This document shows, piece by piece, positions 2,170-60,186 of a stretch of DNA of 64,000 nt. The stretch's first letter is position 1; every line of letters begins with the position of its first letter. The notes under the pieces are model-generated. The model was not told the DNA's origin. It made no database searches and saw only the letters and a program-made list of their open reading frames with translations. Position numbers and translations under genes: made by a program. The DNA comes from an uncultured Candidatus Saccharibacteria bacterium (GTDB taxonomy: Bacteria; Patescibacteriota; Minisyncoccia; Phycocordibacterales; SIBU01): assembly GCA_964355335.1 (NCBI GenBank), contig CAYHDB010000001.1, positions 23,387 through 87,386 of the forward strand. Reading direction: 5' to 3'.

Positions 2170-2609
2170 TTTCTTTTGACGATTTTAAAAAGGTGGAAAT
2201 AACGGTGGGGAAAATATTTTCCGCCGAAAAAGTGCAGGAGACGGATAAACTTTTAAAGCTCTCGGTGGACTTTGGTGCGAAGCAAAATCCCTCCACGCTT
2301 CAGAAAGCGGTGCTCCCTTTAGAAAAGGGAGAACAGGTAGATGTCACCACCCCTCAAATCCCCTCCTTAGAAAAGGAGGGGAGGCAAGAAGAAAGAGATG
2401 TTCGCCAGATTGTTTCAGGAATCTCCGCGTACTTCCCAGACCCTGCTGTTTTGGTGGGGAAGAAGTGTATGTTTGTCACAAATCTTGAACCACGTACAAT
2501 TCGCGGACTTGAGAGTAATGGTATGCTTTTTGCTGTATCGACTGAAGACGGTAAGTTTTCGTTGCTTGAACCTCAGGGAGATATTCCGGAGGGAACGAAA
2601 GCTAAGTAA
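2166..2609 (+). CDS. Stand-alone tRNA-binding domain protein (CsaA/Trbp111-like, resembling the MetRS C-terminal domain)
   Basis: KVEITVGKI...MFVTNLEPRTIRGLESNGMLFAV...GDIPEGTKA is an OB-fold tRNA-binding-domain signature. The ATGA overlap with ruvX suggests an operon. Confidence 0.7.
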   Translation: MISFDDFKKVEITVGKIFSAEKVQETDKLLKLSVDFGAKQNPSTLQKAVLPLEKGEQVDVTTPQIPSLEKEGRQEERDVRQIVSGISAYFPDPAVLVGKKCMFVTNLEPRTIRGLESNGMLFAVSTEDGKFSLLEPQGDIPEGTKAK

Positions 2610-7336: not shown

Positions 7337-8005
7337 ATGACTCCAAAATGCATAGGTATAATCATGGACGGTAATCGCCGGTGGGCGAAATCCAGAAGCT
7401 TGCCGACTTTGGAAGGACATAGACGTGGGTACGAAAAGCTAAAGGAAGTTTTTCGTTGGGCGAAAGATGCTGAATTGACCCATGTTATTGTCTATGCACT
7501 TTCTACAGAGAATTGGAATAGATCAAAAGAAGAAGTTTCATATTTGTTGGATTTGTTTCGCATGGTACTGACAGCCGAGCTTGAGACATTTAAAAAAGAA
7601 GGAGGAAAAATAATCTGCATAGGTCAGAGGGATAGATTCCCTGAAGATATTCAGAAAATGATGGACAAAGCTGAGCAGGAGACCGCCTTATTCCAAGGTC
7701 CGACTTTGGTACTGGCTCTTTCTTATGGAGGAAGAGCGGAAATCGTTGCTGCGGCCAATAAAGCAATGGTCAATGGTGTAATAACCGAAAAATCTTTCTC
7801 CGATTCATTGTGGACGAATGGCATTCCTGACCCGGATTTGATAATACGAACAGGAGGGGAGATGAGGCTTTCAGGGTTTCTTCCTTGGCAGTCGGTGTAC
7901 AGTGAATTATTTTTTACTAAAACACTGTGGCCGGATTTTGACGAAGTGGAGTTTAAGAAAATGATGTCGGATTTTTCCGAGCGTGACCGGAGAAACGGTA
8001 AATGA
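7337..8005 (+). CDS. uppS: isoprenyl transferase / undecaprenyl diphosphate synthase
   Basis: HIGIIMDGNRRWA...VYALSTENWNRS...IRTGGEMRLSGFLPWQS are the UPPS motifs. Confidence 0.9.
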   Translation: MTPKCIGIIMDGNRRWAKSRSLPTLEGHRRGYEKLKEVFRWAKDAELTHVIVYALSTENWNRSKEEVSYLLDLFRMVLTAELETFKKEGGKIICIGQRDRFPEDIQKMMDKAEQETALFQGPTLVLALSYGGRAEIVAAANKAMVNGVITEKSFSDSLWTNGIPDPDLIIRTGGEMRLSGFLPWQSVYSELFFTKTLWPDFDEVEFKKMMSDFSERDRRNGK

Positions 8006-8080
8006 CCAATCACCAATAACTGAATTACTGAATAACCATAGTTGCATTCGTGGTCATTCAGTTATAAGTTATTCAGTAAT
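8006..8080. repeat. Palindromic word repeat, family 2 (ctgaattac / ttattcagtaa)
   Basis: ctgaattactgaataacc...cattcagttataagttattcagtaa. The same word set recurs at 47447-47548 and 60095-60186. Confidence 0.8.
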
Positions 8081-8908
8081 ATGTTATCAGTTCCAGTATT
8101 GTACGAAGATAGTGATGTTTTGGCTGTAAACAAGCCTGCCGGTCTTATCGTACATTCTGACGGTAAGACAAAGGAACCAGCGCTGACGGATTGGATTTTG
8201 GAGAATTATCCCGATATCAAGGGGGTTGGAGAACCCATGAGAATAGAATCAAGAATAAAGAATCAAGAATCAGGAATAAAAAACAAATCAGATTCTTCTC
8301 CAGATCTTGATTCTAGATTCGTGATTCGTGATTCTACCCAGATCGATCGACCAGGAATCGTACATCGCTTGGACCGAGAGACATCCGGCGTTTTGGTGAT
8401 TGCAAAAAATCAAAAGGCTTTTGAGGTTCTGAAAAAGCAATTTCAGGAACGGGAGATGGAAAAAACTTATCGGGCGTTTGTGTATGGAGAAATGAAGAAT
8501 GACTCTGGAATTATCGACCGACCAATCGCTCGAAGTACAGGAGATTTTCGAAAATGGACTGCGGAGCGGGGCAAGAGGGGAGAAGAACGTGAGGCGGTGA
8601 CGGAATATAAAGTGCTTGCCCGATATAACGGTTTTTCTTTTCTCGATGTCCATCCTAAAACTGGCAGGACTCATCAAATCCGTGTTCATCTTAAGGCCAT
8701 AAGTCACCCGATTGTATGCGATAAACTTTATGCTTCCAAAAAAGAATGCGCGTTGGGATTTTCTCGTCTTGCTTTGCACGCATTCTCTCTCAAGTTCAAG
8801 CTACCTAGTGGTAAGGAAATGACGGTAGAAGCACCGTATCCGGAGGATTTCAAAAATGCTATAAAAAGTTTCGATTCCAGCCTCTCTGATAGGCGAGTTG
8901 AATCTTAA
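8081..8908 (+). CDS. RluA-family pseudouridine synthase carrying an in-frame repeat-encoded insertion
   Basis: VLAVNKPAGLIVH...GIVHRLDRETSGVLVIAK...HQIRVHL are the RluA motifs. An extra segment of about 32 aa (ESRIKNQESGIKNKSDSSPDLDSRFVIRDSTQID) is encoded by a palindromic gaatcaag/gattc word repeat. Confidence 0.8.
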   Translation: MLSVPVLYEDSDVLAVNKPAGLIVHSDGKTKEPALTDWILENYPDIKGVGEPMRIESRIKNQESGIKNKSDSSPDLDSRFVIRDSTQIDRPGIVHRLDRETSGVLVIAKNQKAFEVLKKQFQEREMEKTYRAFVYGEMKNDSGIIDRPIARSTGDFRKWTAERGKRGEEREAVTEYKVLARYNGFSFLDVHPKTGRTHQIRVHLKAISHPIVCDKLYASKKECALGFSRLALHAFSLKFKLPSGKEMTVEAPYPEDFKNAIKSFDSSLSDRRVES

Positions 8909-10319: not shown

Positions 10320-10393
10320 GGTGACTATGGTGTAGCGGTAGCACGAATCCCTGTGGAGGATTCGGTTCGGGTTCAACTCCCGATAGTCACCCA
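10320..10393 (+). tRNA. tRNA-His (anticodon GTG) with G-1
   Basis: G-1 then GTGACTA...anticodon loop CTGTGGA...T-arm CGGGTTCAACTCCCG...TAGTCAC-C. Confidence 0.85.
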
Positions 10394-10720
10394 AATACGA
10401 CACCCGCGAGAGCGGGCTTTGTCGTATTTGGGTGACTAAGAAAGCCGGCTGACCGGCTTTCGTTCGGGAGTTGAAGACCTTCTCCTTAATTTATGAGTCA
10501 TTCTTATGGCGAATAAATAGGAAAGGTGTACTGCTCCTGTAAGGAGAAACTCCCGATATTTTTGGTGTGACTATCGGGAGTTGAAAGACGGAGGCGCGAA
10601 GCCGACTGTAGCCAGTCGTGGCCGAGTCGGGCCGTCTACAGGTGCCCATCATTGCTAGATGGGCTTCGAGAGTTCTTATGAGCAGAGCGAATTAGAAACT
10701 CGTGACCAACTCCCGATAGT
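10394..10720. repeat. Non-coding region made of strong hairpins and four direct or inverted fragments of the tRNA-His 3' end. Includes a candidate element at 10566-10718 with 17-bp inverted repeats derived from the tRNA 3' end.
   Basis: caactcccgatagtcaccc (10374-10392) is repeated directly at 10700-10718. It occurs inverted as gtgactatcgggagttgaa at 10569-10588, and as shorter fragments at about 10460 and 10545. Hairpins include caaatacgacacccgcgagagcgggctttgtcgtatttg and aaagccggctgaccggcttt. Confidence 0.6.
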
Positions 10721-10762
10721 CACCCTAAATTTGTTAGTTGAACTTGTACACTTTTCCTCCGT

Positions 10763-13336: not shown

Positions 13337-14329
13337 GTGGAAACAGAAATTACAATAGAGGGAAAGTCATTTCACCTTGTAAAACATAGCAAACGAAGCG
13401 ATGTCGGAGTATATAGCTCGGGCGAGCTTTTTGTGAGAGTGGGGGAGATGAGTGTGATAGACGAAATGGTCAAGCTTCACAAAAAGTTTGATGAGTTCGG
13501 TTTTCCTGTGCCGGAAATTGTTGGCCGAGGAGAGATTGCCGGTCAAGGCTATTTTCTGGAGAAATCTTTCGGAGAAAAGTGTTTTAGTTACCTATTCAAA
13601 TATGATATTGAAAAACATGGGCAGATTTCTCCCGAACTTTTCGAAAAGTTTGTGGCGGTATCAGAGAAGTTTGCTAGAGCCCAGATACGTTCTGTTTGGG
13701 ATTCTTCCTTTATAAAAGGTCGTAGTCTGCGGAGAAACGTCGGCGAGAGTACCCGAGTCTGCGAGGGGGAGGGATTTCAAAATCCTCCGTCTCATCAGAA
13801 TGAGCCACCTCCTTTTACAAAGGAGGAATTTTCCGACACTGTATCAGTCGCTGGGTTGGTAAGACCCGAGGACTTAGCAGGGGAGTTGCCGGAACACAGA
13901 GAGAAGATTTTAAAACTTTTCGATGAGTCGGTAAAAGCGATGAGTAGGTTTCCTGTCGTTCTGACTCATGGCGATTTTAATCCACATAACCTGTTTCCTG
14001 ACGGAGTAATTGATTTTGAAAAGCCGTATCATGTTTCTGTTGGGTACGATTTGGTGACTAATATTTTTCACGCGAATTACTTTCCAAGAGGGGATGAATA
14101 TTCGTATTCCAAATTGTATTTTTTCAGTCAGGAACACGAGCGCTTGTATTATGAGCGCATTGATGCTGTTTTTGTTGAGGCCGGTTTGCCGAAGTTGTCC
14201 GATTATAAAAAGCATTTTGAGTACTGTAGGGCTGTTTGGCTGACGGCTCGCAACGAAGCTACGACGGAACCCGGCAAGAAGTTTCAGCAATGGCGTTATG
14301 AACTTTTTAAAAAGAGTTATTTATCCTAA
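13337..14329 (+). CDS. Phosphotransferase (APH/choline-kinase-like) family protein carrying an in-frame hairpin-element insertion
   Basis: VLTHGDFNPHNLFPDGVIDFE is a Brenner-type kinase motif. Nt 13748-13835 encode EGEGFQNPPSHQNEPPPFTKEEFSD and form a three-hairpin element also found at 43655, 51290 and 61340. Confidence 0.6.
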   Translation: METEITIEGKSFHLVKHSKRSDVGVYSSGELFVRVGEMSVIDEMVKLHKKFDEFGFPVPEIVGRGEIAGQGYFLEKSFGEKCFSYLFKYDIEKHGQISPELFEKFVAVSEKFARAQIRSVWDSSFIKGRSLRRNVGESTRVCEGEGFQNPPSHQNEPPPFTKEEFSDTVSVAGLVRPEDLAGELPEHREKILKLFDESVKAMSRFPVVLTHGDFNPHNLFPDGVIDFEKPYHVSVGYDLVTNIFHANYFPRGDEYSYSKLYFFSQEHERLYYERIDAVFVEAGLPKLSDYKKHFEYCRAVWLTARNEATTEPGKKFQQWRYELFKKSYLS

Positions 14330-15870: not shown

Positions 15871-16620
15871 ATGAAAATTACAAAGCTCGGACATTGTTGT
15901 TTAATTATAGAAATAACACCCTCCATTTTCGGAAAATCTCCCTTACCAAAGGGAGCACTGCATTCTGGTGCAGGAGGGTTGTTACAACCCCCCAAGGCGG
16001 CCCCCTTTGTTAAGGGGGATAGGGAGAATAAAACTGTACGGATAATGACCGATCCCGGAGCCTGGTCTGTGTCGCAAAATGAGGAGAAGGACATTGATTT
16101 TATTTTTATCACGCACGAACATCAAGATCATTTCCATCTTGATTCACTCAAAATAGTATTGAAAAATAATCCGAAGGCAAAAGTTGTTACCAACCGCGCC
16201 GTGGGGAAGTTGCTCGATACTGAGAAGATTCCACATGAACTTTTGGAGCACGGTGGAGAGGGGGAATACGGCGGAGTGCATATAGAGGGATTTGGAGAAA
16301 ATCACGCGACTGTATATCAGGATTTTGGACAGGTGCAAAATACAGGTTATTTATTTGCCGACAGATTTTTCTACCCCGGTGATGCGTTCTATAATCCGAA
16401 TAAACCAGTCGAGATTCTCGCTCTTCCTGTCGCGGGACCGTGGGTGAAGCTTTCCGAAGCGATTGATTATGCCAAATTGCTCAAACCGAAGGTGTGTTTC
16501 CCGGTACATGACGCTTTGCTTAAGTACAATCTTCCGGCACGGCTGGCTCCTCAAAAATTCCTTCCTCTCTCAGGGATAGAATTCGTAGATCTTCTAGAAG
16601 GTGTCACTAAGGCCTTTTAA
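15871..16620 (+). CDS. MBL-fold metallo-hydrolase with a hairpin-encoded insertion of about 40 aa near the N-terminus
   Basis: MKITKLGHCCLIIEI...FIFITHEHQDHF (HxHxDH). Between IEI and TVRIMTDPG, nt 15915-16040 form the hairpins ctcccttaccaaagggag and cccccttt-gttaa-ggggg. Confidence 0.7.
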   Translation: MKITKLGHCCLIIEITPSIFGKSPLPKGALHSGAGGLLQPPKAAPFVKGDRENKTVRIMTDPGAWSVSQNEEKDIDFIFITHEHQDHFHLDSLKIVLKNNPKAKVVTNRAVGKLLDTEKIPHELLEHGGEGEYGGVHIEGFGENHATVYQDFGQVQNTGYLFADRFFYPGDAFYNPNKPVEILALPVAGPWVKLSEAIDYAKLLKPKVCFPVHDALLKYNLPARLAPQKFLPLSGIEFVDLLEGVTKAF

Positions 16621-16689
16621 AAGGTACTCCCTAATCAGGAGTGCTCTTTACCCAAGTAAAGTTATCCCCATTGACATTTTTTAGCTATT

Positions 16690-16725
16690 TGCTACTCTTT
16701 ACTTGGGTAAAGAGTAGCAAATACG
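16690..16725. promoter_or_regulatory. Perfect palindrome of about 34 bp upstream of the trpR-like gene (candidate operator)
   Basis: tttgctactctttac-ttgg-gtaaagagtagcaaa. A half-copy ctctttacccaagtaaag lies at 16646-16663. Confidence 0.55.
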
Positions 16726-16742
16726 AATTACCCTGTATCGCG

Positions 16743-17060
16743 ATGAAAAAAACGAAAAAATCGAAGAAAACAAAGGCGAAATGGAGCATAAGCGATAGTA
16801 ACGCCTCGGCTCTTTCCCGGGCACTGCTCTCTATGAAGAGTGCTGAGGAGATGGGTATGTTTTTGCGTGATTTGCTGACAGAATCGGAAATTATCGAGTT
16901 TTCAAAGCGTTTTTATACCGCTCGGGCAATCGCTGAGAGCGTTCATTATGCAGGTATTGCGGAGGCTACGGGCTTAAGCTCTCGTACTATCGCTCGAGTA
17001 AAGCATTGGTACAATAATGGTAAGGGGGGTTACAAATTGGCCATTAAACGACAAAAATAG
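16743..17060 (+). CDS. TrpR-like / YerC-YecD family DNA-binding protein
   Basis: LLTESEIIEFSKRFYTARAI...HYAGIAEATGLSSRTIARVKHWYNNGKGGYK matches the YerC/TrpR family C-terminal HTH. Confidence 0.75.
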   Translation: MKKTKKSKKTKAKWSISDSNASALSRALLSMKSAEEMGMFLRDLLTESEIIEFSKRFYTARAIAESVHYAGIAEATGLSSRTIARVKHWYNNGKGGYKLAIKRQK

Positions 17061-17097: not shown

Positions 17098-17136
17098 TTA
17101 CCCGCTACTCTTTACCCAAGTAAAGAGTAGCGGGTA
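17098..17136. promoter_or_regulatory. Second perfect palindrome, reverse-complement core of the first, between the trpR-like gene and the LOG-family gene
   Basis: cccgctactctttac-ccaa-gtaaagagtagcggg. Confidence 0.55.
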
Positions 17137-17734: not shown

Positions 17735-17940
17735 AACAATGAAAAAAAATAAATCAAAAGTTAGGGTTTTAAATAACGAAAATCACCATAACCAGCTCTT
17801 GTGGAAAGAGATTGGTTGTGTTTGAGACGGCTCAATTTTTTATACACACATTCAATCCCTTTCCAAAAGGGATTTTTCTTTTTGGGAAATGAAATCGATT
17901 GGTTCATTGACAAAAAAATAACAAACGAAAGGGTGCACAT

Positions 17941-26973: not shown

Positions 26974-27522
26974 TTACTGATTCTTTAAAAGATTCGCTTC
27001 TGCGGTGCGCAATTGCTCTGTAATGGCCTGACTTCTCAACGCTGCTTCTTTTGCTTTTGCCCGCGCAGCACTCAACGAGGCTAGGACAACAGAGGAAAGA
27101 ATGCCGATGATTGCTATAACAATTAAAACAAGAAGAATTATAAATACCCAACTTCCTGCACCCCCTTTCTGGCCTACAAACACACCCTCCTTGTTTTTGA
27201 TTCCAAGAAATGTGGATTTGCACTTTGGACAACGGTATCTATGTGTTCCGACAAAATATAATAAAGTAATCATTGGTGCAAAGAAAACACAAAGCCAGGC
27301 CAGAAACACAAACAAAGGATTCCGTGCCTTCTCTGCAGGACCGATATTTCCACAGTTTCCACATTTTATTGTGACACCCTCTGCTTTTGTTGAAGTTGGG
27401 ACGAATGGACTGGTGGCAGGATTTGTAGTATTCGTGGAATGGTTCGGTTCTGCCTTTGACCCGCATTTATTGCAGAATTTGGCATCGGATGGAAGCTTGC
27501 TATTGCATTTTTTGCAGTCCAT
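26974..27522 (-). CDS. Zinc-ribbon membrane protein with a C-terminal type-IV-pilin-like hydrophobic helix
   Basis: N-terminal CxxC...CxxC zinc ribbon (MDCKKCNSK..CNKCG) and a second Cys cluster. The C-terminus VFIILLVLIVIAIIGILSSVVLASLSAARAKAKEAAL resembles a pilin N-terminal helix (VIAIIGIL..SL.SARAKA). Confidence 0.55.
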   Translation of the reverse strand: MDCKKCNSKLPSDAKFCNKCGSKAEPNHSTNTTNPATSPFVPTSTKAEGVTIKCGNCGNIGPAEKARNPLFVFLAWLCVFFAPMITLLYFVGTHRYRCPKCKSTFLGIKNKEGVFVGQKGGAGSWVFIILLVLIVIAIIGILSSVVLASLSAARAKAKEAALRSQAITEQLRTAEANLLKNQ

Positions 27523-29854: not shown

Positions 29855-30361
29855 ATGAGCGCAATACAGTATCCCTATATTCCACAGGGTAAGACGATAA
29901 AATATGTTTCCGGACAAGACCGCTTTATGCGTGCCGCCGAGGATGCCTGTAAGGAACTGTCGACCGACCGCCAGCATCCTACTGGGGCAGTGTTGGCTCG
30001 CGACGGAGTGGTGATTGCTCGCGCCGCAAATCAATCCGCATTGAAAAATCCTAAACTTTTGGCTCTACACAGGGCGGGTTGGTGTGTCCGGAGATTATTC
30101 AAGATACCTTCGGGCCAAAAATATTGGCTCTGTCCAGGTTGTGCGTCATCGAAGAATCACGCTGAGACATCGGTGGTTCGGTTGGCTAGAAAAAAAGGGG
30201 TTGAAATTGCCGGAGCCGATCTCTATCTTTGGGGGCATTGGTGGTGCTGTGAGCCATGTTGGAACTCTATGATCGAAGCCGGAATCAAAGATGTGTATCT
30301 TTTGGAAGGAAGTGAAAGGTTGTTTAATCCCAAGTTTCCTGAGAATATTGTTGGTAAGTGA
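29855..30361 (+). CDS. dCMP deaminase (cytidine/deoxycytidylate deaminase family)
   Basis: HAETSVV...CEPCWNSMIEAGIKDVY are the zinc-binding HAE and PCxxC motifs. Confidence 0.75.
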   Translation: MSAIQYPYIPQGKTIKYVSGQDRFMRAAEDACKELSTDRQHPTGAVLARDGVVIARAANQSALKNPKLLALHRAGWCVRRLFKIPSGQKYWLCPGCASSKNHAETSVVRLARKKGVEIAGADLYLWGHWWCCEPCWNSMIEAGIKDVYLLEGSERLFNPKFPENIVGK

Positions 30362-31889: not shown

Positions 31890-32122
31890 AGCTACGCTTT
31901 TGGAGTAGAAGTTTGTTTGCGAGATATTTTAAGAGGAAACCCGTGCCACAGTTTATCGGAGTGCACATTTCTGAATTCAACAATGTTTGGAATCAAATTG
32001 CTCTCGAAAAAGCACGACCGAGCTTGAATCCTTTGTGGAAGGTGGACGAAGAAAAAGTCGCTCGTCTTGAGCTCAGGTTAAAGGAGCTTCGCCCTTAGCC
32101 TTCCACTGGAATATTTGTGTTG

Positions 32123-32152
32123 GGCGCGAGAGCTATCTCGCGTCTTTTTCTT
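32123..32152. terminator. terminator-like hairpin, copy 1 of an identical repeat
   Basis: tgggcgcgagagctatctcgcgtcttttt. Confidence 0.6.
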
Positions 32153-32284: not shown

Positions 32285-32722
32285 ATGAAAGAGACACCCA
32301 AAAAACTAGTCGGTTTACCGCTTCGGCAGTTTGGCTATATTCACGTCACCGGCCTACCAGCTCGTAGAAGTGAAATGCAGTACACAATCCGCCCCTCCGC
32401 AAATGATTTAGGGAAGTGGAACTGGAATAACGGTATGGTGGTTGCCGTCACTGAATCTGGCGAGGTGTGGCTCAGAACAATGTCCGAGATGGGGGTTTCT
32501 GAGAAAGAGGCAATTCTCGATCTTTGCCCTAGAGGCGTTGGTGCGACGGTACCCTGTAGCAATGGGGAAGCTGTGCCGAGTCACATGCTTATGTCGCGGA
32601 ATGTTAATCCTGAATGGGATGGAAGGGGCAAGTATCCGTGGGATATTCCTCAAGGAGAGGAAACGCTGACGGGATTTCTAGAGTTGGCGAGGATGTTCGA
32701 GGCACGAGCCGCAGCCGTTTGA
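32285..32722 (+). CDS. Hypothetical protein, flanked by identical hairpin repeats
   Basis: A 145-aa ORF; the start is not verified. Confidence 0.35.
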   Translation: MKETPKKLVGLPLRQFGYIHVTGLPARRSEMQYTIRPSANDLGKWNWNNGMVVAVTESGEVWLRTMSEMGVSEKEAILDLCPRGVGATVPCSNGEAVPSHMLMSRNVNPEWDGRGKYPWDIPQGEETLTGFLELARMFEARAAAV

Positions 32723-32741: not shown

Positions 32742-32771
32742 TGTGGGCGCGAGAGCTATCTCGCGTCTTTT
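32742..32771. terminator. terminator-like hairpin, copy 2 (identical to 32123-32152)
   Basis: tgggcgcgagagctatctcgcgtctttttt. Confidence 0.6.
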
Positions 32772-32789
32772 TTCTTTGTCGGGTACAAT

Positions 32790-39148: not shown

Positions 39149-42100
39149 ATGTCCGAAGAAAATATCAAGAAAAGTCCAATAGCCGATAGGGAAGAGTTGA
39201 TTTTGAAGACCTGGCAGGATAACCAGATTTTCAAAAAAACTCTCGAAAAGCCGTCACCAAAAGGCGAGTTTGTTTTTTACGAAGGTCCTCCCACGGCGAA
39301 CGGAAAACCCGGGATTCATCACCTCGAAGCACGAGCTTTCAAAGATGCTATCCCTCGATACAAGACGATGCAGGGTTTCCATGTACGCAGAAAAGGTGGA
39401 TGGGATACACACGGATTGCCTGTGGAACTGGCGGTGGAAAAAGAGCTTGGATTGAAATCAAAAAAAGACATTGAAGATTATGGTGTCGCGAAGTTTAACC
39501 AGAAATGTAAGGAAAGTGTTTGGACGTACGTGGATTTATGGAAAAAGTTCACGGAACGTATTGGTTTTTGGGTTGATTTGAACAATCCTTACGTCACCTA
39601 TTCGGCAAACTATGTCGAATCATTGTGGTCAATCCTTAAACGTGCCGACGAGAAGAAACTTTTGTATAAGGATTACAAGGTTGTGCCATGGTGTCCGAGA
39701 TGTGGAACAGCGCTTTCAAGTCACGAATTGGCACAGGGGTATGAGACAGTTAAAGATTTATCTTTAACTGTCAGATTCAGGATTCAGGATTCAAGATTCA
39801 CGAAGGGGGAGAATACCTATCTATTGGCGTGGACTACCACGCCGTGGACGTTACCTGGGAATGTCGGGCTTGCTGTTGGAGCAAAAATTAAATATGTAAA
39901 AGTGAAAGTGGGGGCGGAGGTTATTATTTTGGCTAAGGAACGCACAGAAAGTGTTTTGAAAGGGAAGGAATATAAAATTCTCGAGGAGTTCACGGGAGAA
40001 AAGCTTGTGGGTTTGGAATACGAGCCTCTTTACACATTTTTGAGAGATAGTTTGACCAAAAATCCCTCCACGAATAAGAATTCGGTGCTCCCTTTAGGAA
40101 AGGGAGAATTAAGAGACGAGGCGGGAAAACTGAAAAATGCGTTTAAAGTCTACGGAGCGGATTTTGTGACCACCACCGACGGTACGGGTATAGTGCATAC
40201 AGCCGTGATGTATGGAACAGACGACTTTGAGTTGGGTACAAAAGTCGGGTTGCCAAAATACCATTTGGTAAATGAAGATGGAACATTCAAGAAAGAAACC
40301 GGATTTTTGTCAGGAAAGTTTGTGAAGGACGAGGAAACGGCTGTCGATATCATCAAGGATTTGGCGCACCGGGGATTGCTTTTTGCCAAGGAAAAATACG
40401 AGCACAGCTATCCTTTCTGTTGGCGCTGTCATACCCCGCTTATCTACTACGCGAGGGATTCATGGTATTTAGCCATGAGCAAGTTGCGTAATGTGCTGGT
40501 CAAGGAAAACAAGAAAATCAATTGGGAGCCTGCTCATATTAAAGACGGGCGTTTTGGAGAATGGCTACGTGAGATAAAGGATTGGGCAATTTCTCGTGAA
40601 CGTTACTGGGGGACACCACTACCTGTGTGGAACTGTGAATCCTGTGGAAAAAAAGAGGTGTTGGGCTCGTATGCCGAAGTCATGTCGCGTACTGGTGGAG
40701 TTCTGACCAAGATTATCCTTGTCCGTCACGGTGAAAGCGAGAAGAATATAAAGAATGTTTTCTCTTGTGTTTTCGAAGGCTATCCTTTGACAAAATTGGG
40801 AGAATCGCAGGCTCGCAATGGAGTGAAGCTTCTCGGAAAGGAAAAGGTGTCTGCAATATACGCCTCGCCTGTCTTTCGCACAAAGCAAACCGCTGGAATA
40901 TACGCGAAGAAGCTGAAGAAAGAAGTGGTGGTGGACAATCGTCTGCGAGAGGTGGACAGTGGTGTTTGGGATGAAAAGCGTTTTGACGATGAGTGGGTGC
41001 TCAAGGAACAGAAAGCATACAAGAATCTTTCGCATGAAGGTTTTTATGTGGCGCCTAGAGGAAGTACGGGAGAAAGCTGGAAGCAAGTGGAGGATAGGGC
41101 AACGGATTTTTTCAAAGAAATTATAAAGAAACATAAGGGGGAGACGGTAGTTATCGTTTCTCACGAAGGACCCTTGGCGTTTTTGATGAGATACATTCAG
41201 GACGTTCCGATTGATGATATGAAAAGTATTTTCAGAAAGGGTTTGGTCAATGGCTTTGCTGTACCGAAGCTTGTATATATCGACAATTCAACGGAGAAGG
41301 AGTTTAATCCTCACCGCCCGAGGATTGATGAAGTAGAGTTCCCTTGTAAGTGTGGAGGAAGAATGAAACGAGTAAAAGAGGTCGTGGATGTATGGTTTGA
41401 TTCCGGCGCGATGCCTTTTGCTCAGGACCACTATCCTTTCGAGAACAAGGCAATTGTTGAAAAGGAAAGATTTCCCGCCGATTATATCTCAGAGGCGATA
41501 GACCAGACTCGCGGGTGGTTCTACACACTTCATGCGATAGGGAATATCTTAGGTAAAGGATTTGCCTACAAAAATGTTATTTGTCTTGGCCATATTTTGG
41601 ATGCACAGGGTAAGAAGATGTCGAAGTCTATCGGAAATGTCGTGGATCCATGGCAGATGATAAACAAGTACGGCTCTGACGCTCTTCGCCTTTGGATGTA
41701 CTCGGTGAACCAGCCAGGGGAATCGAAGAACTTTGACGAGAAGACCGTGGACGAGATTGTAAAGAAATATTTCAATCTTGCCTCGAACGTTCTCGCTTTC
41801 TACCAGCTGTATTCTTCTTCTGCGGTCAATGGTCAAATGTCACATGTCAAAAGCTCTCATGTTCTGGACATTTGGATAATTGCTAGATTAAATCAGCTTA
41901 TTGGTGAGGTGACGAGCGGGCTGGATAATTACAAATTGCTTGAACCGACTCGCGCAATCAGAGATTTTATCGCTGATCTTTCACAGTGGTATCTTCGACG
42001 TTCACGCGAGCGAATTAAAAATGGTGGGCAAGATGGAGAAGAGGCTCTGGCTACATTACGGTTTGTGCTTTGTGAGTTATCCAAACTTATGGCTCCTATG

Positions 42101-42697
42101 GCGCCATTCTTTGCCGAATTTTTATACAAGGAGATTGGGGGAGAAAAAGAAAGTGTCCATTTGGAAGAATGGCCGGAGGTAAAAGTAAAAACTAAAAGCG
42201 AAAAACTTAAAATATTGGAAGAAATGGAAGAGGTGAGGAGAGTAGTGTCGCTTGCTTTGGAGCAACGTGCTAAGGCCAACATAAAAGTTCGTCAGCCCCT
42301 TTCTTCTCTTAAGCTTAAATCTAAAATCATAAATCTTAAATCCGGAGTGTCTGATTTGATAAAAGATGAAGTAAATGTAAAAGAAATAATTTTTGATTCA
42401 ACAATTCAGAATGAAGTGGAATTAGACACGACTATTACTCCGGAATTAAAGGAGGAGGGGGATGTTCGAGAGCTTGTCCGGGCAATTCAGGATCTGCGCA
42501 AAACTTCGGGATTTAACGCAATCGATGTTGTTAATCTTACTGTCGAGACTGATGAGAAAGGAAAAAAGTTTATAGAGAAGTATCTGAATGAATTGATGAA
42601 GGCTACACAACTGAAGAAAATTGCTCACGGCCCATCTCTAGATGGAGGGGAAGTCTTGATGGATGGATTTTCTCTAAAAATCTCGGTTTCGAAATAG
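39149..42697 (+). CDS. ileS: Isoleucine--tRNA ligase with an embedded histidine-phosphatase (PGAM-like) domain
   Basis: IleRS motifs: PPTANGKPGIHH (HIGH), WCPRCGTAL, KKMSKSIGN (KMSKS), and zinc-knuckle halves WNCESCG / CKCGG..VVDVWFDSG. Between the halves, at about nt 40690-41310, lies RHGESEKN...SAIYASPVFRTKQTA...VVIVSHEGPLAFLM, a branch-1 histidine-phosphatase signature. Confidence 0.85.
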   Translation: MSEENIKKSPIADREELILKTWQDNQIFKKTLEKPSPKGEFVFYEGPPTANGKPGIHHLEARAFKDAIPRYKTMQGFHVRRKGGWDTHGLPVELAVEKELGLKSKKDIEDYGVAKFNQKCKESVWTYVDLWKKFTERIGFWVDLNNPYVTYSANYVESLWSILKRADEKKLLYKDYKVVPWCPRCGTALSSHELAQGYETVKDLSLTVRFRIQDSRFTKGENTYLLAWTTTPWTLPGNVGLAVGAKIKYVKVKVGAEVIILAKERTESVLKGKEYKILEEFTGEKLVGLEYEPLYTFLRDSLTKNPSTNKNSVLPLGKGELRDEAGKLKNAFKVYGADFVTTTDGTGIVHTAVMYGTDDFELGTKVGLPKYHLVNEDGTFKKETGFLSGKFVKDEETAVDIIKDLAHRGLLFAKEKYEHSYPFCWRCHTPLIYYARDSWYLAMSKLRNVLVKENKKINWEPAHIKDGRFGEWLREIKDWAISRERYWGTPLPVWNCESCGKKEVLGSYAEVMSRTGGVLTKIILVRHGESEKNIKNVFSCVFEGYPLTKLGESQARNGVKLLGKEKVSAIYASPVFRTKQTAGIYAKKLKKEVVVDNRLREVDSGVWDEKRFDDEWVLKEQKAYKNLSHEGFYVAPRGSTGESWKQVEDRATDFFKEIIKKHKGETVVIVSHEGPLAFLMRYIQDVPIDDMKSIFRKGLVNGFAVPKLVYIDNSTEKEFNPHRPRIDEVEFPCKCGGRMKRVKEVVDVWFDSGAMPFAQDHYPFENKAIVEKERFPADYISEAIDQTRGWFYTLHAIGNILGKGFAYKNVICLGHILDAQGKKMSKSIGNVVDPWQMINKYGSDALRLWMYSVNQPGESKNFDEKTVDEIVKKYFNLASNVLAFYQLYSSSAVNGQMSHVKSSHVLDIWIIARLNQLIGEVTSGLDNYKLLEPTRAIRDFIADLSQWYLRRSRERIKNGGQDGEEALATLRFVLCELSKLMAPMAPFFAEFLYKEIGGEKESVHLEEWPEVKVKTKSEKLKILEEMEEVRRVVSLALEQRAKANIKVRQPLSSLKLKSKIINLKSGVSDLIKDEVNVKEIIFDSTIQNEVELDTTITPELKEEGDVRELVRAIQDLRKTSGFNAIDVVNLTVETDEKGKKFIEKYLNELMKATQLKKIAHGPSLDGGEVLMDGFSLKISVSK

Positions 42698-43450: not shown

Positions 43451-43654
43451 GTCGCCTTTTCGGAGAACGACGCACGGGTGAGCGTGGAATCACCTTTTCA
43501 GCATCCTGAGTACACCGGTTTTTTGTGTATGTAGAATTAACCTTACGTTTTTCTCGCCCCTCCGTGTTTGCTTACGCGGAGGGGTTCAGTGTTTCAATAT
43601 TTTTAGTATACTGTAATTTCGGCAATCTTAATTCCTCCTTTGAAAAAGGAGGTG

Positions 43655-43765
43655 CCGTCCACAGGTGCACATCATCTGCCGATGTGCCCGAGTCATCGAG
43701 GCGGAGGATTTCAAAATCCCTCGTCTCATAAGAATGAGCCACTCCCTTTTGAAAAGGGAGAATAA
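43655..43765. repeat. Modular three-hairpin element, family 4, copy B
   Basis: ggcggaggatttcaaaatccctc + gtctcataagaatgagcc + actcccttttgaaaagggagaa. Confidence 0.7.
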
Positions 43766-43780
43766 TAGATTTGTATTTTT

Positions 43781-44338
43781 ATGACCAAAAGAGTATTTCT
43801 TATCCATGGTTGGGATGGAAAACCCGATAACCATTGGTTTCCTTGGCTTACCTGGGAGCTAAAGGCTCGTGGTTTTGAGGTGCATTCATTGACCATGCCT
43901 CATGCGGACACACCAAAGGTTTCAGAATGGATTGCTGAAATGAAAAATATTGTCGGGCACCCAAACAAAGACACATTTTTTGTCGGTCATTCTCTTGGCT
44001 GTATCGCAATTGTTCGATATCTCGCACAACTACCTAAGACTGCTCGAGTGGGCGGGTGCGTGTTTGTAGCAGGATTTTCAAGTGATTTGGGTATCCCTGA
44101 GATTTCTGAATTTGTTTCTTTGCCTTTCGATATGGAAAAAGTCAAAAGTCACTGCTCGAAGTTTGTGAATATATTTTCTGATAATGATGAGTATGTTCCG
44201 ATGGTGAAAAGTTTGGAGTTTCAAAAAGCCCTTGGCGCGAAAGGTACTCTCGAAAGAGGAAAGGGGCATTTTACGAAAAGTCAGGGAGTCGACGCTTTAC
44301 CTTCAGTTTTTAAAGTCCTTATGGATATGGGCAGTTAA
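43781..44338 (+). CDS. alpha/beta-hydrolase (YdeN/RBBP9-like serine hydrolase)
   Basis: VFLIHGW...FFVGHSLGC (GxSxG)... Confidence 0.75.
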   Translation: MTKRVFLIHGWDGKPDNHWFPWLTWELKARGFEVHSLTMPHADTPKVSEWIAEMKNIVGHPNKDTFFVGHSLGCIAIVRYLAQLPKTARVGGCVFVAGFSSDLGIPEISEFVSLPFDMEKVKSHCSKFVNIFSDNDEYVPMVKSLEFQKALGAKGTLERGKGHFTKSQGVDALPSVFKVLMDMGS

Positions 44339-45490: not shown

Positions 45491-47446
45491 ATGAAATCCG
45501 ACGATCTCCCAAATTTGAAGAAATTAGATGATTCCGATGACCCGATGAACTCTCTCGAGGAGCGTCTCTATTCTCGCGAGAATAATTTTTCTGCTGTTAC
45601 TTCAAGCCAGTCACGTCTTAAGAAGCACGACCTAGGTGTTCGAAAGGATTGGGGCAACGAAGCCCCCGGTTTTAAAAAAGTTTTTCAGGATAATACACCA
45701 CATATGCCATTTCTTAAAAAATTATTTATTTTTTCGGTAATTTTTTTCCTTATTTCTGTATCTGTTGCAGGTTACGTTTTTTTTGCCGGTGGTAATGTTA
45801 TATCTTCAAGCAATGTGGACATAAGCATCACTGGACCTGTATCCGTTGCCGGGGGAGAGATTCTTCCGCTTGAAATAAAAGTGACCAACCAAAACAATGC
45901 TGACCTTGAAGCTGCAGACTTGGTAATCGATTATCCCGAGGGCACGAGGCAGGCTGAGGATATGACCGTGACATTGAAGCGTTACCGAGAAGATTTGGGC
46001 ACAATCATCAAGGGGGGGAGTGTCACGAAGAAAGTTCAAGCCGTTCTATTCGGCCAAGAAGGAGACGTGAAGGATTTGAATATTTCGGTTGAATACCGCG
46101 TGAAAGGTTCGAACGCCATCTTGCCCAAGAAAAAAGTATACAGTGTCGCGTTGAGTTCTTCCCCTGTGACTATGACAGTTACTTCCGTTAAGGAGCTGAA
46201 CGCCAATCAAGAGGCCGAGTTCACGGTGACAGTTGTCTCCAATGCAAGTGCGGTTATTCAGAAGCTCTCATTGGCAGCTGATTATCCGTTCGGGTTTACT
46301 TTTTCAGGTTCAGATCCGAAGCCGTCGTGGAGTAATAGTTATTGGAGGCTAGGTGATTTGAAACCCGGAGTAAAACGTGTAGTGAAAGTGAGAGGTTCGA
46401 TAGCCGGACAAGACAATGAAGACCGTGTGTTTAAGTTCTCGGTTGGAACGGAAAGCGCTACAAACGACAGCGCGATAGGAACAAATTTTCTTACCGCGAC
46501 TCAGACAGTTGCCATAAAGAAGCCGTTTATCGGTACTACTTTTGCCCTAGATGGAGATACGGATGAAATCTACGCGGTACGTGCAGGAAGAACTCTTCGG
46601 GCCGATTTGGGACTTACAAACAACATTGGCGCGAAGATGACGGATATTAAAGTTGCCGTAAAAATTACTGGAAGTATTTTTGACCAGTCATCGGTTTCTC
46701 TTTCAAACGGTTTTTACAGATCATTTGATAAAACAATCATTTGGGACCAGACATTGAAGTCGCAGTTGGCTGTGCTTAATCCGGATGACCAGATTGCACT
46801 AAGTTTTTCGCTTGGTATTTTGCCTGAATCCGAGCTCAGATCCATAAATAGTCCGGAGATGACTTTGGTCGCTACTATTACAGGGAAGCGGTTGAGTGAG
46901 GCCGGACTTTCTCAGGAGGTTTCATCCAGTGTCGTCAGAAAAGTTCGGGTGCCTTCAAGTATCGGTATTTCTACACGTTCGCTGTATTATTCCGGACCTT
47001 TTGTAAATACAGGGCCGATCCCGCCAAAGGCCGACAACGATACGAGCTATACGATTGTCTGGTCACTGACGAACGGGTCTACCGATTTGTCCAATGTCAA
47101 AGTCACCGCCACCTTGCCATCGTATGTAAAGTGGCTGGCCGTCTCAGCGCCAAATTCCGAAAAGATATTGTACAATCCTGTTGGAGGGCAGGTGGTGTGG
47201 GACGTAGGAGATTTGTCAGCCGGAACGGGTTTTTCAAGTTCACCAAGAGAAGTCAGTTTCCAAGTTTCTCTCACTCCGAGTATCAATCAGGTGAAGACCG
47301 CTCCGATTTTGATAACGGAGGCCACAGCTAAAGGCGAGGACAACTTTGCTGACCAGACTGTGACGACAATATCAAGGGAGGCACTTACGACAGAGCTGGG
47401 TACGGATATAAGTTGGAAAATCGGACAGGGGAGTGTGGTGAGGTAA
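45491..47446 (+). CDS. large hypothetical membrane-anchored protein with repeated beta-sandwich-like segments
   Basis: A 651-aa product with a TM at about residue 75 (LFIFSVIFFLISVSVAGYVFF), then a Ser/Thr/Val-rich extracellular region. Confidence 0.45.
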   Translation: MKSDDLPNLKKLDDSDDPMNSLEERLYSRENNFSAVTSSQSRLKKHDLGVRKDWGNEAPGFKKVFQDNTPHMPFLKKLFIFSVIFFLISVSVAGYVFFAGGNVISSSNVDISITGPVSVAGGEILPLEIKVTNQNNADLEAADLVIDYPEGTRQAEDMTVTLKRYREDLGTIIKGGSVTKKVQAVLFGQEGDVKDLNISVEYRVKGSNAILPKKKVYSVALSSSPVTMTVTSVKELNANQEAEFTVTVVSNASAVIQKLSLAADYPFGFTFSGSDPKPSWSNSYWRLGDLKPGVKRVVKVRGSIAGQDNEDRVFKFSVGTESATNDSAIGTNFLTATQTVAIKKPFIGTTFALDGDTDEIYAVRAGRTLRADLGLTNNIGAKMTDIKVAVKITGSIFDQSSVSLSNGFYRSFDKTIIWDQTLKSQLAVLNPDDQIALSFSLGILPESELRSINSPEMTLVATITGKRLSEAGLSQEVSSSVVRKVRVPSSIGISTRSLYYSGPFVNTGPIPPKADNDTSYTIVWSLTNGSTDLSNVKVTATLPSYVKWLAVSAPNSEKILYNPVGGQVVWDVGDLSAGTGFSSSPREVSFQVSLTPSINQVKTAPILITEATAKGEDNFADQTVTTISREALTTELGTDISWKIGQGSVVR

Positions 47447-47548
47447 CTGAATTACAGATTACTTATAACTAAATGACTGAATTACAGACCCCTTTTTATT
47501 TTTGTCATTCAGTGATAGGTTATTCAGTAATAAGTTGTAAGTTGAAGG
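47447..47548. repeat. Palindromic word repeat, family 2, second copy
   Basis: ctgaattacagattacttataactaaatgactgaattacag...cattcagtgataggttattcagtaataagttg. Confidence 0.8.
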
Positions 47549-51155: not shown

Positions 51156-51289
51156 TTTGTTCTTTCGTTCCGCGTTAGTCCGTCAATATTCAGACGGACT
51201 TTTCTTTTGCCTTTATTCTCTGTCGTTGGTATCATTCGAAGGCAACTTTATTCTCCCTTTGATAAAGGGAGCCCGCCCGTACCGAAACG

Positions 51290-51412
51290 GCACCTGCCCG
51301 ACTACATTCAGGCGGGCGTTCGGGCGGGTACCGCATTCTGACGCGGGGGAGGGATTTAAATCCTCCGTTTTATCAAACTAAAACACCTCCTTTTATAAAG
51401 GAGGAATCAGAC
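51290..51412. repeat. Modular three-hairpin element, family 4, copy C, ending in an SD sequence for the M16 peptidase gene
   Basis: gcccgactacattcaggcgggc + gggggagggatttaaatcctcc + gttttatcaaactaaaac + cacctccttttataaaggaggaa, 9 nt before the ATG at 51417. Confidence 0.7.
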
Positions 51413-60094: not shown

Positions 60095-60186
60095 AATCTA
60101 AAATTACGGAATGACAAATTACTTATAACTGAATAACCGATAACATAAAGAAAAAGTAATTCAGTGATTCAGTTGTCAGTCATAAG
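60095..60186. repeat. Palindromic word repeat, family 2, third copy
   Basis: atgacaaattacttataactgaataaccg...gtaattcagtgattcagttgtcagtcataagttattcag. Confidence 0.8.

Follow-up and report, generated by a model that had tools for sequence, protein, structure and literature searches.

An in-frame palindromic repeat in an APH-like phosphotransferase gene of Patescibacteria and its relationship to DUF559 gene-bearing repeats

Rickettsia palindromic elements (RPEs) are palindromic repeats of about 100-150 nt that occur both between genes and in frame within conserved genes, where they are translated as harmless surface segments. To our knowledge, no transposase has been identified for them, and in-frame palindromic insertions have so far been discussed mainly for Rickettsia. 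The small dispersed repeats of Nostoc are hairpin units of 21-27 nt in cyanobacteria, which insert into other repeats and have no associated gene.

In REPIN/REP-RAYT systems an inverted pair of palindromes makes up a long hairpin, and many gene-less copies coexist with a few enzyme loci flanked by repeats (PMC3116915, PMC3337134). REP ends bear a GTAG or CGTC tetranucleotide tag (PMC3733652). Bacterial MITEs located in frame in ORFs include the enterobacterial RU/ERIC-type units (PMC2759123) and the Coxiella MITEs (PMC5896051). In addition, Vsr-like homing endonucleases (EDxHD, I-Bth0305I-type) are small nucleases driving selfish DNA into conserved genes (PMC2677866, PMC3239194).

The insert and its host gene

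The DNA analysed here is a 64-kb stretch (the window), in which an earlier note had described a three-hairpin element of 88 nt lying in frame inside an APH-like ORF. The gene and the parts of the insert are as follows.

13337-14329, plus strand: APH-like phosphotransferase, the host gene (ORF of 330 aa; PF01636 match; 55 homologs)
13706-13831, plus strand: net in-frame insertion of 126 nt, i.e. 42 codons (SFIKGRSLRRNVGESTRVCEGEGFQNPPSHQNEPPPFTKEEF; ortholog alignments, codon-level comparison, pLDDT)
13701-13719, plus strand: left terminal inverted repeat and T1 hairpin, decayed (ATTCTTCCTTTATAAAAGG; canonical ATTCTCCCTTTnnnAAAGGGAG; full-element regex, left-half HMM)
13720-13749, plus strand: extra 30 nt splitting the 3' arm of T1, without counterpart in the 16 other full-length copies (direct sequence reading)
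13750-13767, plus strand: X module TACC-CGAGTCTGCGAG-GG, an imperfect hairpin with loop TCTG (alignment with 43615-43775 and locus L001; DNA fold)
13768-13788, plus strand: central hairpin GGAGGGATTT-CA-AAATCCTCC (GGGATTT/AAATCCC; repeat match, hairpin search)
13789-13805, plus strand: Y module CTCAT-CAGA-ATGAG, a hypervariable-stem slot (filled by 51 distinct hairpins across genomes)
13806-13829, plus strand: right terminal hairpin T2 and inverted repeat (CACCTCCTTTTACAAAGGAGGAAT; hairpin search, right-half HMM)

The host ORF matches the Pfam family APH (PF01636, E 6.4e-7) with 29.8 bits, above the curated cut-off of 23.2, and retains the catalytic loop HGDxNxxN as HGDFNPHN on the 3' side of the insert, which together place it among the APH phosphotransferases and agree with the initial description of an in-frame insertion with an intact motif downstream. 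Residues G212, D213 and N218 are invariant across 54 orthologs, which are typically 285 aa long, as opposed to 330 aa in the window. The nearest named homologs are Patescibacteria or Ca. Taylorbacteria-like; the bacterium itself is tiny and of the groundwater type (Patescibacteria).

The insert turned out to be larger than the 88 nt originally proposed, as the codon-level comparison gives 126 nt and its terminal inverted repeats delimit an element of 129 nt (13701-13829). The sequence modules that had been quoted were located, namely GGAGGGATTTCAAAATCCTCC at 13768-13788 and CCACCTCCTTTTACAAAGGAGGAA at 13805-13828, the latter with relatives at 43632-43655 and 51383-51406, while 0 matches are expected by chance in either case; they belong to an element of five modules and not three. 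The junction peptides predicted for the insert include VCEGEGFQNPPSHQNEPPPFTK. In the AlphaFold2 model of the host protein (pLDDT 86.9), only residues 126-166, which correspond to the insert, fall below 50. The insert, being the sole low-confidence loop of a confident model, is thus predicted to be a disordered, floppy loop of 42 residues that leaves the kinase catalytic core untouched, and on the same model it is tolerated by the kinase-like protein.

The earlier note had pointed to ortholog alignment as the way to recognize an ancestral peptide. The segment was found to be missing from 52 of the 54 APH orthologs, and the two carriers sit in different clades of a neighbour-joining tree (built on 283 columns only), each with empty sister sequences: P0002, the sister of the window protein, is 70.7% identical and empty, and so are P0007 and P0008, which are 79-80% identical to the second carrier, P0003. 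Since the carriers belong to separate clades and their nearest relatives are empty, the segment is, judging from the alignments, an insertion and not an ancestral feature.

A single old gain in the APH gene with many precise losses, or recombination between the two lineages, might also be considered, given that palindromes readily undergo precise deletion and that the carriers have in common the right-hand codon boundary (..GAA TTT | TCN GAN ACT) and the module order. Such a history, however, would take some six or more precise losses, where two gains suffice (our count on the neighbour-joining tree), and the X and Y modules of the carriers are of different sub-types (CTCAT-CAGA-ATGAG vs. CCTCGGAGACTCGG). 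Furthermore, the divergence of the flanks is ordinary and gives no sign of recent transfer. We thus regard a shared origin of the two inserts as very unlikely. A repeat-induced chimera from assembly or binning is a negligible concern: metagenome assemblers can be misled by short repeats, and the near-identical strains L252 and L253 do not have the same number of tandem left arms, which could reflect assembly collapse, but 2702 nt spanning the insert were recovered in an independent assembly (L244, ENA ERZ4201064) at 99.96% identity with one mismatch, two further copies of the window (tRNA_bind and RecA-proximal, see below) were likewise reproduced independently, and the reading frame is kept in 4/4 genic copies.

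Architecture and distribution of the repeat

By its sequence, the APH insert belongs to a family of dispersed palindromic repeats. The element is an imperfect palindrome of 93-158 nt with 11-nt inverted ends (ATTCYYCCTTT...AAAGGRGGAAT) and five hairpin modules, two of which have stems that are hypervariable yet still paired; equal ends and equal module order were observed in 17 full-length copies from many genomes. A full copy is built from a pair of arms, each of roughly 48 nt and inverted relative to the other, in the order ATTCYCCCTTT-loop-AAAGGGAG / X hairpin / GGAGGGATTT ... AAATCCTCC / Y hairpin / CACCTCCTTT-loop-AAAGGAGGAAT. The arms are reverse-complement related, and the left-half HMM matches right halves on the opposite strand. 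In the APH gene the left-half model matches 13701-13777 (E 3.7e-5) and the right-half model 13780-13829 (E 8.8e-14). The extra 30 nt at 13720-13749 look nested or duplicated, because a second GTAGTCTGCGGAG motif resembles the X module. The DNA fold of the element has a z-score of -3.3, with 0/200 shuffles folding as well, and perfect stems of at least 5 bp are present in the Y slot of 37 of 123 copies vs. about 3.6 expected, the slot being filled by 51 different sequences overall. Variable yet perfect stems could come from template switching within palindromes and not from selection. Neither a target-site duplication nor a conserved flanking motif was detected in the 17 full copies.

In silico analysis of the window by HMM revealed seven loci of the family, four of them intragenic, while the three full-length copies in the list below are intergenic. 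The other copies, together with a solo hairpin, are the following.

2286-2399, plus strand: in-frame 38-aa insertion in a tRNA_bind protein (ORF 2166-2609; structure-sequence alignment, HMM, hairpins)
15913-16023, plus strand: in-frame insertion of ~37 aa in an MBL-fold hydrolase (ORF 15871-16620; syntenic ortholog, hairpins, HMM)
17854-17874, no strand given: solo T-like hairpin AATCCCTTTCCAAAAGGGATT, intergenic (hairpin search; weak HMM match, E 0.0028)
40046-40129, plus strand: in-frame 28-aa insertion in isoleucyl-tRNA synthetase, IleRS (ORF 39149-42697; structure alignment, HMM)
43631-43763, minus strand: full-length intergenic copy of 133 nt, upstream of the serine hydrolase gene 43781-44338 (alignment, regex, HMM)
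51250-51407, plus strand: full-length intergenic copy of 158 nt with extra nested hairpins (alignment, regex, HMM)
61346-61478, plus strand: full-length intergenic copy of 133 nt, between RecA and a small ORF (alignment, HMM)

The three intergenic sites named at the outset were all recovered as full copies, while the in-frame copies at 2286-2399, 15913-16023 and 40046-40129 had been left out of that list. A repeat finder linked 13772-13829 to 43706-43763 (84% identity) and 51350-51407 (76%), and 13779-13828 also to 2284-2333 and 40059-40108; it returned no pair of window copies more than 88% identical. The tRNA_bind insertion combines a half element at 2285-2333 (left-half model, minus strand; E 8.2e-10) with a T-type hairpin at 2359-2382, and residues 41-78 of the query are unmatched against the contiguous Trbp111 structure 1pyb_A. 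Similarly, the IleRS half element (40060-40109, E 6.9e-10) lies where query residues 300-327 drop between residues 292 and 293 of 8c8w_A. The MBL-fold copy represents a sister sub-family with the central hairpin GGGTTGT/ACAACCC and T hairpins at 15938-15955 and 16001-16018; it is matched by the HMM at 15937-15978 (E 2.6e-5), and the insertion is missing from the syntenic ortholog in L121. With respect to the RecA-proximal copy, the equivalent FtsK-GlucodextranB...RecA neighbourhood of a Taylorbacteria relative contains a DUF559 element of the gene-bearing form. That the two occupy exactly the same site was rejected, as the neighbourhood is common to both and the junction is not.

The element architecture recurs across many phyla. 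Among metagenome loci, a position deep inside an ORF was observed for 9% of copies vs. 52% of random positions, an about five-fold depletion within genes. In-frame copies therefore look like survivors of selection and not like the outcome of a preference of the element, so that of the earlier proposal, that the element tolerates or selects for in-frame insertion, tolerance is consistent with the low-confidence loop and selection for the frame is not supported, given the genic depletion. Eleven further in-frame copies were found in metagenome loci, and in-frame copies elsewhere affect PolA-like, YchF-like, MurD-like, TsaE-like and HsdS-like proteins, names that come from reading translated ORFs and not from Pfam. 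One preferred frame or orientation was considered and rejected, as both orientations and several frames occur. Finally, 2.9 million viral contigs contained only one match, and phages are therefore no obvious vector.

The DUF559 gene-bearing form and the proposed origin of the insert

Thirteen DUF559 ORFs were present in 1.75 Mb of loci, and all five that were run against Pfam match PF04480 (E 1e-26 to 1e-33). T hairpins lie on both flanks of 11 of the 12 assessable DUF559 ORFs, compared with 14 of 2924 background ORFs (0.5%), a contrast to be read with the selection bias that most of these loci were found by scanning for the right arm itself, which a protein-based sample removes in part only. 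At an independent locus obtained by protein search, left arms precede the ATG, the ORF and a right arm, and gene-less copies come next. The ORF lies between the central-hairpin halves GGAGGGATTT and AAATCCTCC. In several copies the left arm stops a few bases 5' of the DUF559 ATG, and its GGAGGG would be placed as a putative ribosome-binding site. The C-terminal tail of the enzyme, ~16 residues long, is encoded by the right arm together with the stop codon, and arm-encoded C-terminal peptides are present in 91 of 117 full-length homologs retrieved with a tail-less query. These peptides include EILRL..SPPPLxKEE, KSSGSSE and NPSxHKNxxLPLGKGE, the last of which matches peptides of the APH and IleRS inserts.

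Based on PF04480 and the conserved acidic and His residues, the gene-bearing ORFs are assigned to the DUF559 / Vsr-like PD-(D/E)XK endonuclease family. Among the putative catalytic residues (D, ExD, H), no variation is seen at D73, E84 and D86 and hardly any at H91, and 3hrl, an 'endonuclease-like protein', is the nearest match among solved structures (E 1.3e-11). Pfam analysis of 59 window ORFs revealed no transposase, RAYT, Y1 transposase or DUF559, and a DUF559 HMM found nothing in the six-frame translation of the window and flanking loci, which were reached through RecA and the tRNA_bind protein and extend about 10 kb beyond it. Gene-less arm doublets of about 100 nt far outnumber the gene-bearing form. 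As the arms flank DUF559 genes and the right arm encodes the tail, the copies of roughly 100 nt are MITE/REPIN-like derivatives devoid of the gene.

We believe, with a probability of about 0.7, that the APH insert derives from a small palindromic mobile element with a DUF559 gene in its autonomous form, and that it is itself a decayed copy without that gene. That form would consist of a gene for a 110-130 aa DUF559 (Vsr-like PD-(D/E)XK) endonuclease between two arms, and the gene-less copies would spread in trans, by analogy with MITEs or REPINs. The right arm is natively coding and the element is therefore open in several frames, yielding Pro/Gly/Lys/Glu-rich peptides; this native coding state would also help to explain translation without stop codons. 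Most copies would persist between genes, whereas a genic copy would survive only if it kept the frame, had no stop codon and fell in a tolerant surface loop, and in the APH case the copy would be translated as a disordered 42-residue kinase loop. DUF559 may be the mobilising nuclease, movement may proceed by hairpin or cruciform recognition without target duplication, and the one APH site may have been hit twice through target preference. We know of no case in which a PD-(D/E)XK nickase alone drives transposition.

Two other explanations concern the nature of the hairpins. According to one, which we consider unlikely, no unit transposition takes place: tiny hairpin modules build up locally by nested insertion, template switching or slippage, and the DUF559 association is incidental, e.g. 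through a common preference for hairpin-rich spacers. The extra hairpins nested in T2 or in the left half (L060, L067, 51250-51407, 13720-13749), the half elements in IleRS and the tRNA_bind protein, the variable number of tandem left arms in L252 and L253 and the missing target-site duplications are all compatible with it. Local build-up does not, however, readily explain five modules in fixed order with fixed 11-nt ends in 17 full copies of many genomes, or the gain of the whole composite in one step in the APH and MBL-fold proteins when compared to empty orthologs, and the arm-gene-arm layout is highly non-random (11/12 vs. 0.5%). According to the other, to which we give slightly less credit still, the hairpin array is a selected functional nucleic-acid element, such as an mRNA stability, translation or protein-binding site. 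T2 pairs the anti-Shine-Dalgarno-like CACCTCCTTT with the Shine-Dalgarno-like AAAGGAGG and could sequester or mimic ribosome-binding sites, the copy at 51250-51407 stops 9 nt before the ATG of an M16 peptidase gene, and such a role would also suit the fold z-score, the stems that differ yet stay paired, and the framework modules, which are identical in the window and L001 although the coding DNA on either side agrees at only about 60-65%. Recent copying from family masters would account for the identity of the modules just as well, and a functional role is difficult to reconcile with an element missing from 52 of 54 orthologs, the closest relatives included, and occurring at heterogeneous positions, in both orientations and in several frames. 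Moreover, the corresponding hairpin in other phyla reads CCCCCTTT/AAAGGGGG, which is unlike an anti-Shine-Dalgarno sequence. A gathering-threshold Rfam search of the whole window returned tRNAs only, and a known RNA family was rejected for the element, since a permissive search of two element regions yielded a chance-level RAGATH-19 match at best (22.5 bits vs. a gathering score of 85.6).

We are more hesitant, and somewhat short of even odds, regarding the further proposal that DUF559 is the arm-recognising nuclease of an unrecognised class of mini mobile elements, with gene-less derivatives in many phyla, RPE-like behaviour and some target-site preference. If so, the element would consist of an arm, a roughly 120-aa PD-(D/E)XK gene and a second arm, in about 0.45-0.6 kb, DUF559 would recognise the hairpins or cruciforms of its own arms, and gene-less derivatives of ~100 nt would persist in frame in essential Patescibacteria genes (IleRS; PolA-, MurD- and YchF-like), giving an RPE-like phenomenon a candidate enzyme for the first time. 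DUF559 is among the most widespread uncharacterised small endonuclease families, and the concrete hypothesis that could be offered for it is a role as nuclease in a REPIN-like system. This would also account for the unusual N-terminal extensions and Pro/Gly/Lys-rich tails carried by many annotated DUF559 and 'hypothetical' proteins. Full-text literature searches returned no account of such repeats in Patescibacteria and no description of DUF559 as repeat-associated or mobile, the coverage of these searches not amounting to proof of novelty. It appears that streamlined Patescibacteria genomes carry selfish palindromic DNA even inside essential housekeeping genes, where the element is a possible route to new protein loops. 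With regard to annotation, such repeats lengthen proteins and give rise to spurious ORFs, and the alignment of orthologs and the assembly of metagenomes can be misled by them.

Comparison with known systems

The very small hairpins and nested structures of the Nostoc repeats may be taken as a lead by analogy, but those repeats are 21-27 nt long, cyanobacterial and without a gene, whereas the element described here is larger and DUF559-associated. Homing is brought to mind by the single APH codon boundary hit in two separate clades. Nevertheless, there are many unrelated sites per genome and no nuclease gene in the gene-less copies, and DUF559 is a Pfam family distinct from the Vsr-like homing enzymes. 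The latter ride introns, inteins and split-intein loci that splice out, whereas the DNA here stays in frame; no Rfam intron match and no intein domain were found in the host ORFs, and the APH insert has only 42 codons.

The element resembles MITEs in being small and non-autonomous, in having 11-nt terminal inverted repeats and in adding peptide segments within ORFs. It differs from them in that no target-site duplication accompanies the 17 full copies, in the hypervariable stems of its modular hairpins and in its cognate gene-bearing form, which has the same arms and encodes a nuclease of roughly 120 aa and not a DDE transposase. As in REPIN-RAYT systems, two inverted units form a long hairpin, tandem repeat clusters lie beside the gene and there is no target duplication. 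The flanked gene, however, encodes a PD-(D/E)XK DUF559 protein (PF04480) and not an HUH Y1 transposase, the ends are ATTC...GAAT without GTAG or CGTC, and copies are not strictly extragenic (4/7 in the window are intragenic).

The behaviour of RPEs, which the earlier note had invoked, is a fair description of the in-frame copies: a dispersed palindrome of ~129 nt with a hairpin fold and seven window loci, inserted in frame in conserved genes at structurally tolerant positions and absent from orthologs. The element probably does not belong to the RPE family as such, from which it is set apart by host and by its own sequence and module architecture. The host belongs to the Patescibacteria and not to the Rickettsiales, related copies occur in many phyla, and the element has a gene-bearing DUF559 form, whereas none is known for RPEs.

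The insertion in the APH-like kinase gene

The window has a G+C content of 43.8%, a coding density of about 85% and a housekeeping gene content typical of Patescibacteria. The gene under study encodes a protein whose closest named homolog is from 'Candidatus Taylorbacteria'.

ORF 13337-14329: APH-like phosphotransferase, 330 aa, Pfam APH above the curated cut-off
13706-13831: insert, 126 nt

The insert size was obtained by codon-level comparison with orthologs lacking the segment, and the approximately 88 nt proposed in the earlier note was too small. The sequence modules quoted there were found and are non-chance matches. A repeat finder applied to the window linked 13772-13829 to 43706-43763 (84% identity) and 51350-51407 (76%), and the insert region also to 2284-2333 and 40059-40108. 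The region was recovered at 99.96% identity in an independent ENA assembly, and the insert is thus not an assembly artefact.

That the segment is an insertion was borne out by the alignment of 54 orthologs, mostly of about 285 aa, 52 of which are empty at this position. Residues are found there only in the window protein (42 extra) and in the ortholog P0003 (39 extra). A neighbour-joining tree placed these two carriers apart: the window protein pairs with the empty ortholog P0002 (70.7% identical; 200/200 bootstrap triplets agree), while P0003 clusters with P0007 and P0008 (79-80% identical, both empty). The two inserts share the same right-hand codon boundary and differ in their X and Y modules, the variable-stem hairpins of the element. 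Given that the carriers are separated and their sisters are empty, two gains are more parsimonious than a single gain, which would require about six precise losses by our count on the tree. Two independent hits at one site of the APH gene are therefore likely but, since the tree is a simple one, not proven.

Structure prediction by AlphaFold2 with the 54-sequence alignment as input gave a confident model (pLDDT 86.9, pTM 0.83). Its sole low-confidence segment (residues 126-166) coincides with the insert (residues 124-165), which is placed between two helices, upstream of the catalytic loop; the kinase motif is intact downstream, as had been noted from the sequence. Regarding surface loop or core, the insert is most likely the former, as a disordered loop.

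Copies in the window and anatomy of the element

HMMs made from full-length copies detected seven element loci in the window, four of them genic and in frame, every one being an insertion relative to homologs.

Element loci in the window
APH-like kinase: 42-aa insert, from ortholog alignment and codon-level comparison
tRNA_bind protein: 38-aa insert, between contiguous residues of Trbp111
Isoleucyl-tRNA synthetase (IleRS): 28-aa insert, between residues 292 and 293 of 8c8w
MBL-fold hydrolase: insert of about 37 aa, missing in the syntenic ortholog in the retrieved locus L121
43631-43763: full intergenic copy
51250-51407: full intergenic copy
61346-61478: full intergenic copy

A peptide-motif scan of all 64 window ORFs returned the same four genes and two NUDIX matches, which appear to be native sequence. 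The IleRS and tRNA_bind copies were half elements in the HMM search. The repeat finder revealed no pair of window copies above 88% identity and thus gives no sign of recent activity in this genome.

Modules of the element in order, from 17 full-length copies in the window and other genomes
T1 hairpin (left terminal), first: ATTCTCCCTTT-nnn-AAAGGGAG
X hairpin, second: between T1 and the central hairpin
Central hairpin, third: GGAGGGATTT-(0 to 30 nt)-AAATCCTCC
Y hairpin, fourth: between the central hairpin and T2
T2 hairpin (right terminal), fifth: CACCTCCTTT-nnn-AAAGGAGGAAT

All 17 copies have 11-nt inverted ends and a single module order. The two halves are approximate reverse complements of each other, and the element is therefore a doublet of ~48-nt arms in inverted orientation. 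In the X and Y slots the stem sequences vary among copies and pairing is kept; perfect stems of at least 5 bp occur in 37 of 123 Y slots, compared with about 3.6 expected from shuffles, and these slots hold 51 distinct hairpins. Such varied-but-paired stems fit selection on structure, and they also fit template-switch 'correction' within palindromes. Neither a target-site duplication nor a conserved flank is visible around full-length copies. In the APH copy the right arm is well preserved, and the left one is decayed and contains 30 additional nt. Copies at retrieved loci L060 (2062-2187) and L067 (6864-6989) and at window 51250-51407 are canonical apart from extra small hairpins nested in T2 or the left half, suggesting that modules still smaller than the element can be added.

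Several other features of the window were recorded. Pseudouridine synthase (8042-8908), dCMP deaminase (29855-30361) and a double-zinc-ribbon protein (26974-27522) span 25-43 residues more than their Pfam profiles; this may reflect either ordinary variation or insertions too old to be recognised. The IleRS ORF (39149-42697) contains a complete histidine phosphatase domain (His_Phos_1; aa 522-693, about nt 40712-41227), an unusual domain fusion or insertion. Two 38-nt perfect palindromes (16686-16723 and 17099-17136) with identical 17-bp stems and mutually reverse-complementary loops flank a Trp-repressor-like ORF (16641-17060), and identical 29-nt terminator-like hairpins (TGGGCGCGAGAGCTATCTCGCGTCTTTTT; 32121-32149 and 32744-32772) bracket ORF 32285-32722 (145 aa, no Pfam match). 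An AT-rich repeat family (ACTGAATTACAGATTACTTATAACT...) unrelated to the hairpin element lies at several gene ends (7997-8092, 47446-47543, 60106-60140). The tRNA-His 3' end (10367-10395) is repeated about 330 nt downstream (10700-10728, 86% identity), which could be the scar of an integration event.

Distribution across genomes and association with DUF559

A degenerate right-arm pattern, with about one chance match estimated, identified at least 118 stretches in species-representative genomes of many lineages. The matches listed include Patescibacteria (Parcubacteria, Saccharibacteria, Peribacteria, Gracilibacteria), Bacteroidota, among them the isolate Algoriphagus antarcticus, Beta- and Gammaproteobacteria, Omnitrophota, Elusimicrobiota and others; most listed copies outside Patescibacteria carry G5/C5 motifs, e.g., GGGGGATTT or CCCCCTTT..AAAGGGGG. 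A Patescibacteria-type pattern was present at no fewer than 120 metagenome loci. Among viral contigs there was only one match. When genic copies were defined as in frame and flanked on both sides by 50 or more open codons, 11 of the 119 assessable metagenome copies listed (9%) qualified; for positions drawn at random from these loci the share was 52%. Most copies of the element thus lie between genes, and those in frame within genes form a minority that has survived. Genic metagenome copies occur in both orientations and several reading frames, and in-frame hosts in the genome-scan loci are PolA-, YchF-, MurD- and TsaE-like ORFs, as named from their translations. In L018, from a Gallionellaceae MAG, a G5/C5 copy lies in frame at residues ~110-147 of an ORF that is HsdS-like (type I restriction specificity) by translation, and hence in-frame survival is not confined to Patescibacteria.

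Clustering of the ORFs adjoining copies across all retrieved loci revealed a single family recurring in unrelated genomes, and all five members run against Pfam are DUF559 (PF04480; E 1e-26 to 1e-33). The 1.75 Mb of retrieved loci contain 13 DUF559 ORFs, all among arms; T hairpins flank 11 of 12 assessable ones on both sides, compared with 14 of 2924 background ORFs. The left arm in several copies stops a few bases before the DUF559 ATG, where we read its GGAGGG as a putative ribosome-binding site. At its other end the ORF extends into the right arm, which supplies the final residues and the stop codon. Since the first scan had selected for right arms, the test was repeated from the protein side with a tail-less query. 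This returned 730 homologs, including Taylorbacteria, Harrisonbacteria, Jorgensenbacteria and Kapabacteria, and among those listed 91 of 117 full-length proteins have arm-encoded C-terminal peptides; one tail type, ...NPSxHKNxxLPLGKGE, matches the peptide carried by the IleRS and APH inserts. The homologs have conserved D, ExD and H residues that are putatively catalytic, and the nearest solved structure is 3hrl, an 'endonuclease-like protein'. The protein-search locus L253 presents three tandem left arms followed by the gene, the right arm and gene-less copies. Among strains 99.6-99.96% identical, L252 has two tandem left arms of 48 nt upstream of the DUF559 gene and L253/L254 have three (~2340-2500), reflecting either recent gain or loss or assembly collapse.

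In the window the FtsK-GlucodextranB...RecA neighbourhood holds a gene-less copy, and in a Taylorbacteria relative a gene-bearing one; an identical insertion junction was ruled out, as the junctions differ. In the Ca. Taylorbacteria locus L249 (GCA_002795925.1; 2451-2888 and 3375 onward) a DUF559 element lies just upstream of a RecA gene with an intein and LAGLIDADG endonuclease, while the window RecA (60187-61308) is without an intein. In addition, an ORF beside the RecA-proximal element of L245 (9512-9820) has no Pfam match. Gene calling appears to generate or lengthen ORFs over element copies (L245; the N-termini of DUF559 ORFs), giving peptides like ...PPFxKGG..., a systematic annotation artefact to be expected in these genomes.

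Proposed mode of spread and relation to known systems

The data show an arm-gene-arm cassette and dispersed arm doublets that lack the gene; judged against empty orthologs, these doublets enter genes as whole units. DUF559 may recognise the arms as hairpins or cruciforms and mobilise its own cassette and, in trans, gene-less copies, without target duplication. Genic copies would persist only where they preserve the frame, contain no stop and fall in tolerant loops, and the already coding right arm would help their survival. Counting against mobilisation by DUF559, its gene is absent from the ~75 kb accessible of the source genome, no young copies were found there, and we are aware of no case in which a PD-(D/E)XK nickase by itself acts as a transposase.

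A literature search found no account of repeats of this type in Patescibacteria, and none that associates DUF559 with repeats. The likeness to Rickettsia palindromic elements (RPEs) drawn in the earlier note holds for behaviour, but on the features testable the element falls outside the RPE and also the REPIN families. Its organisation resembles that of REPIN-RAYT systems, whereas its enzyme class, DUF559, is different, and it agrees with a MITE except for the target-site duplication. We see a substantial chance that the element represents a new enzyme class of mobile element.
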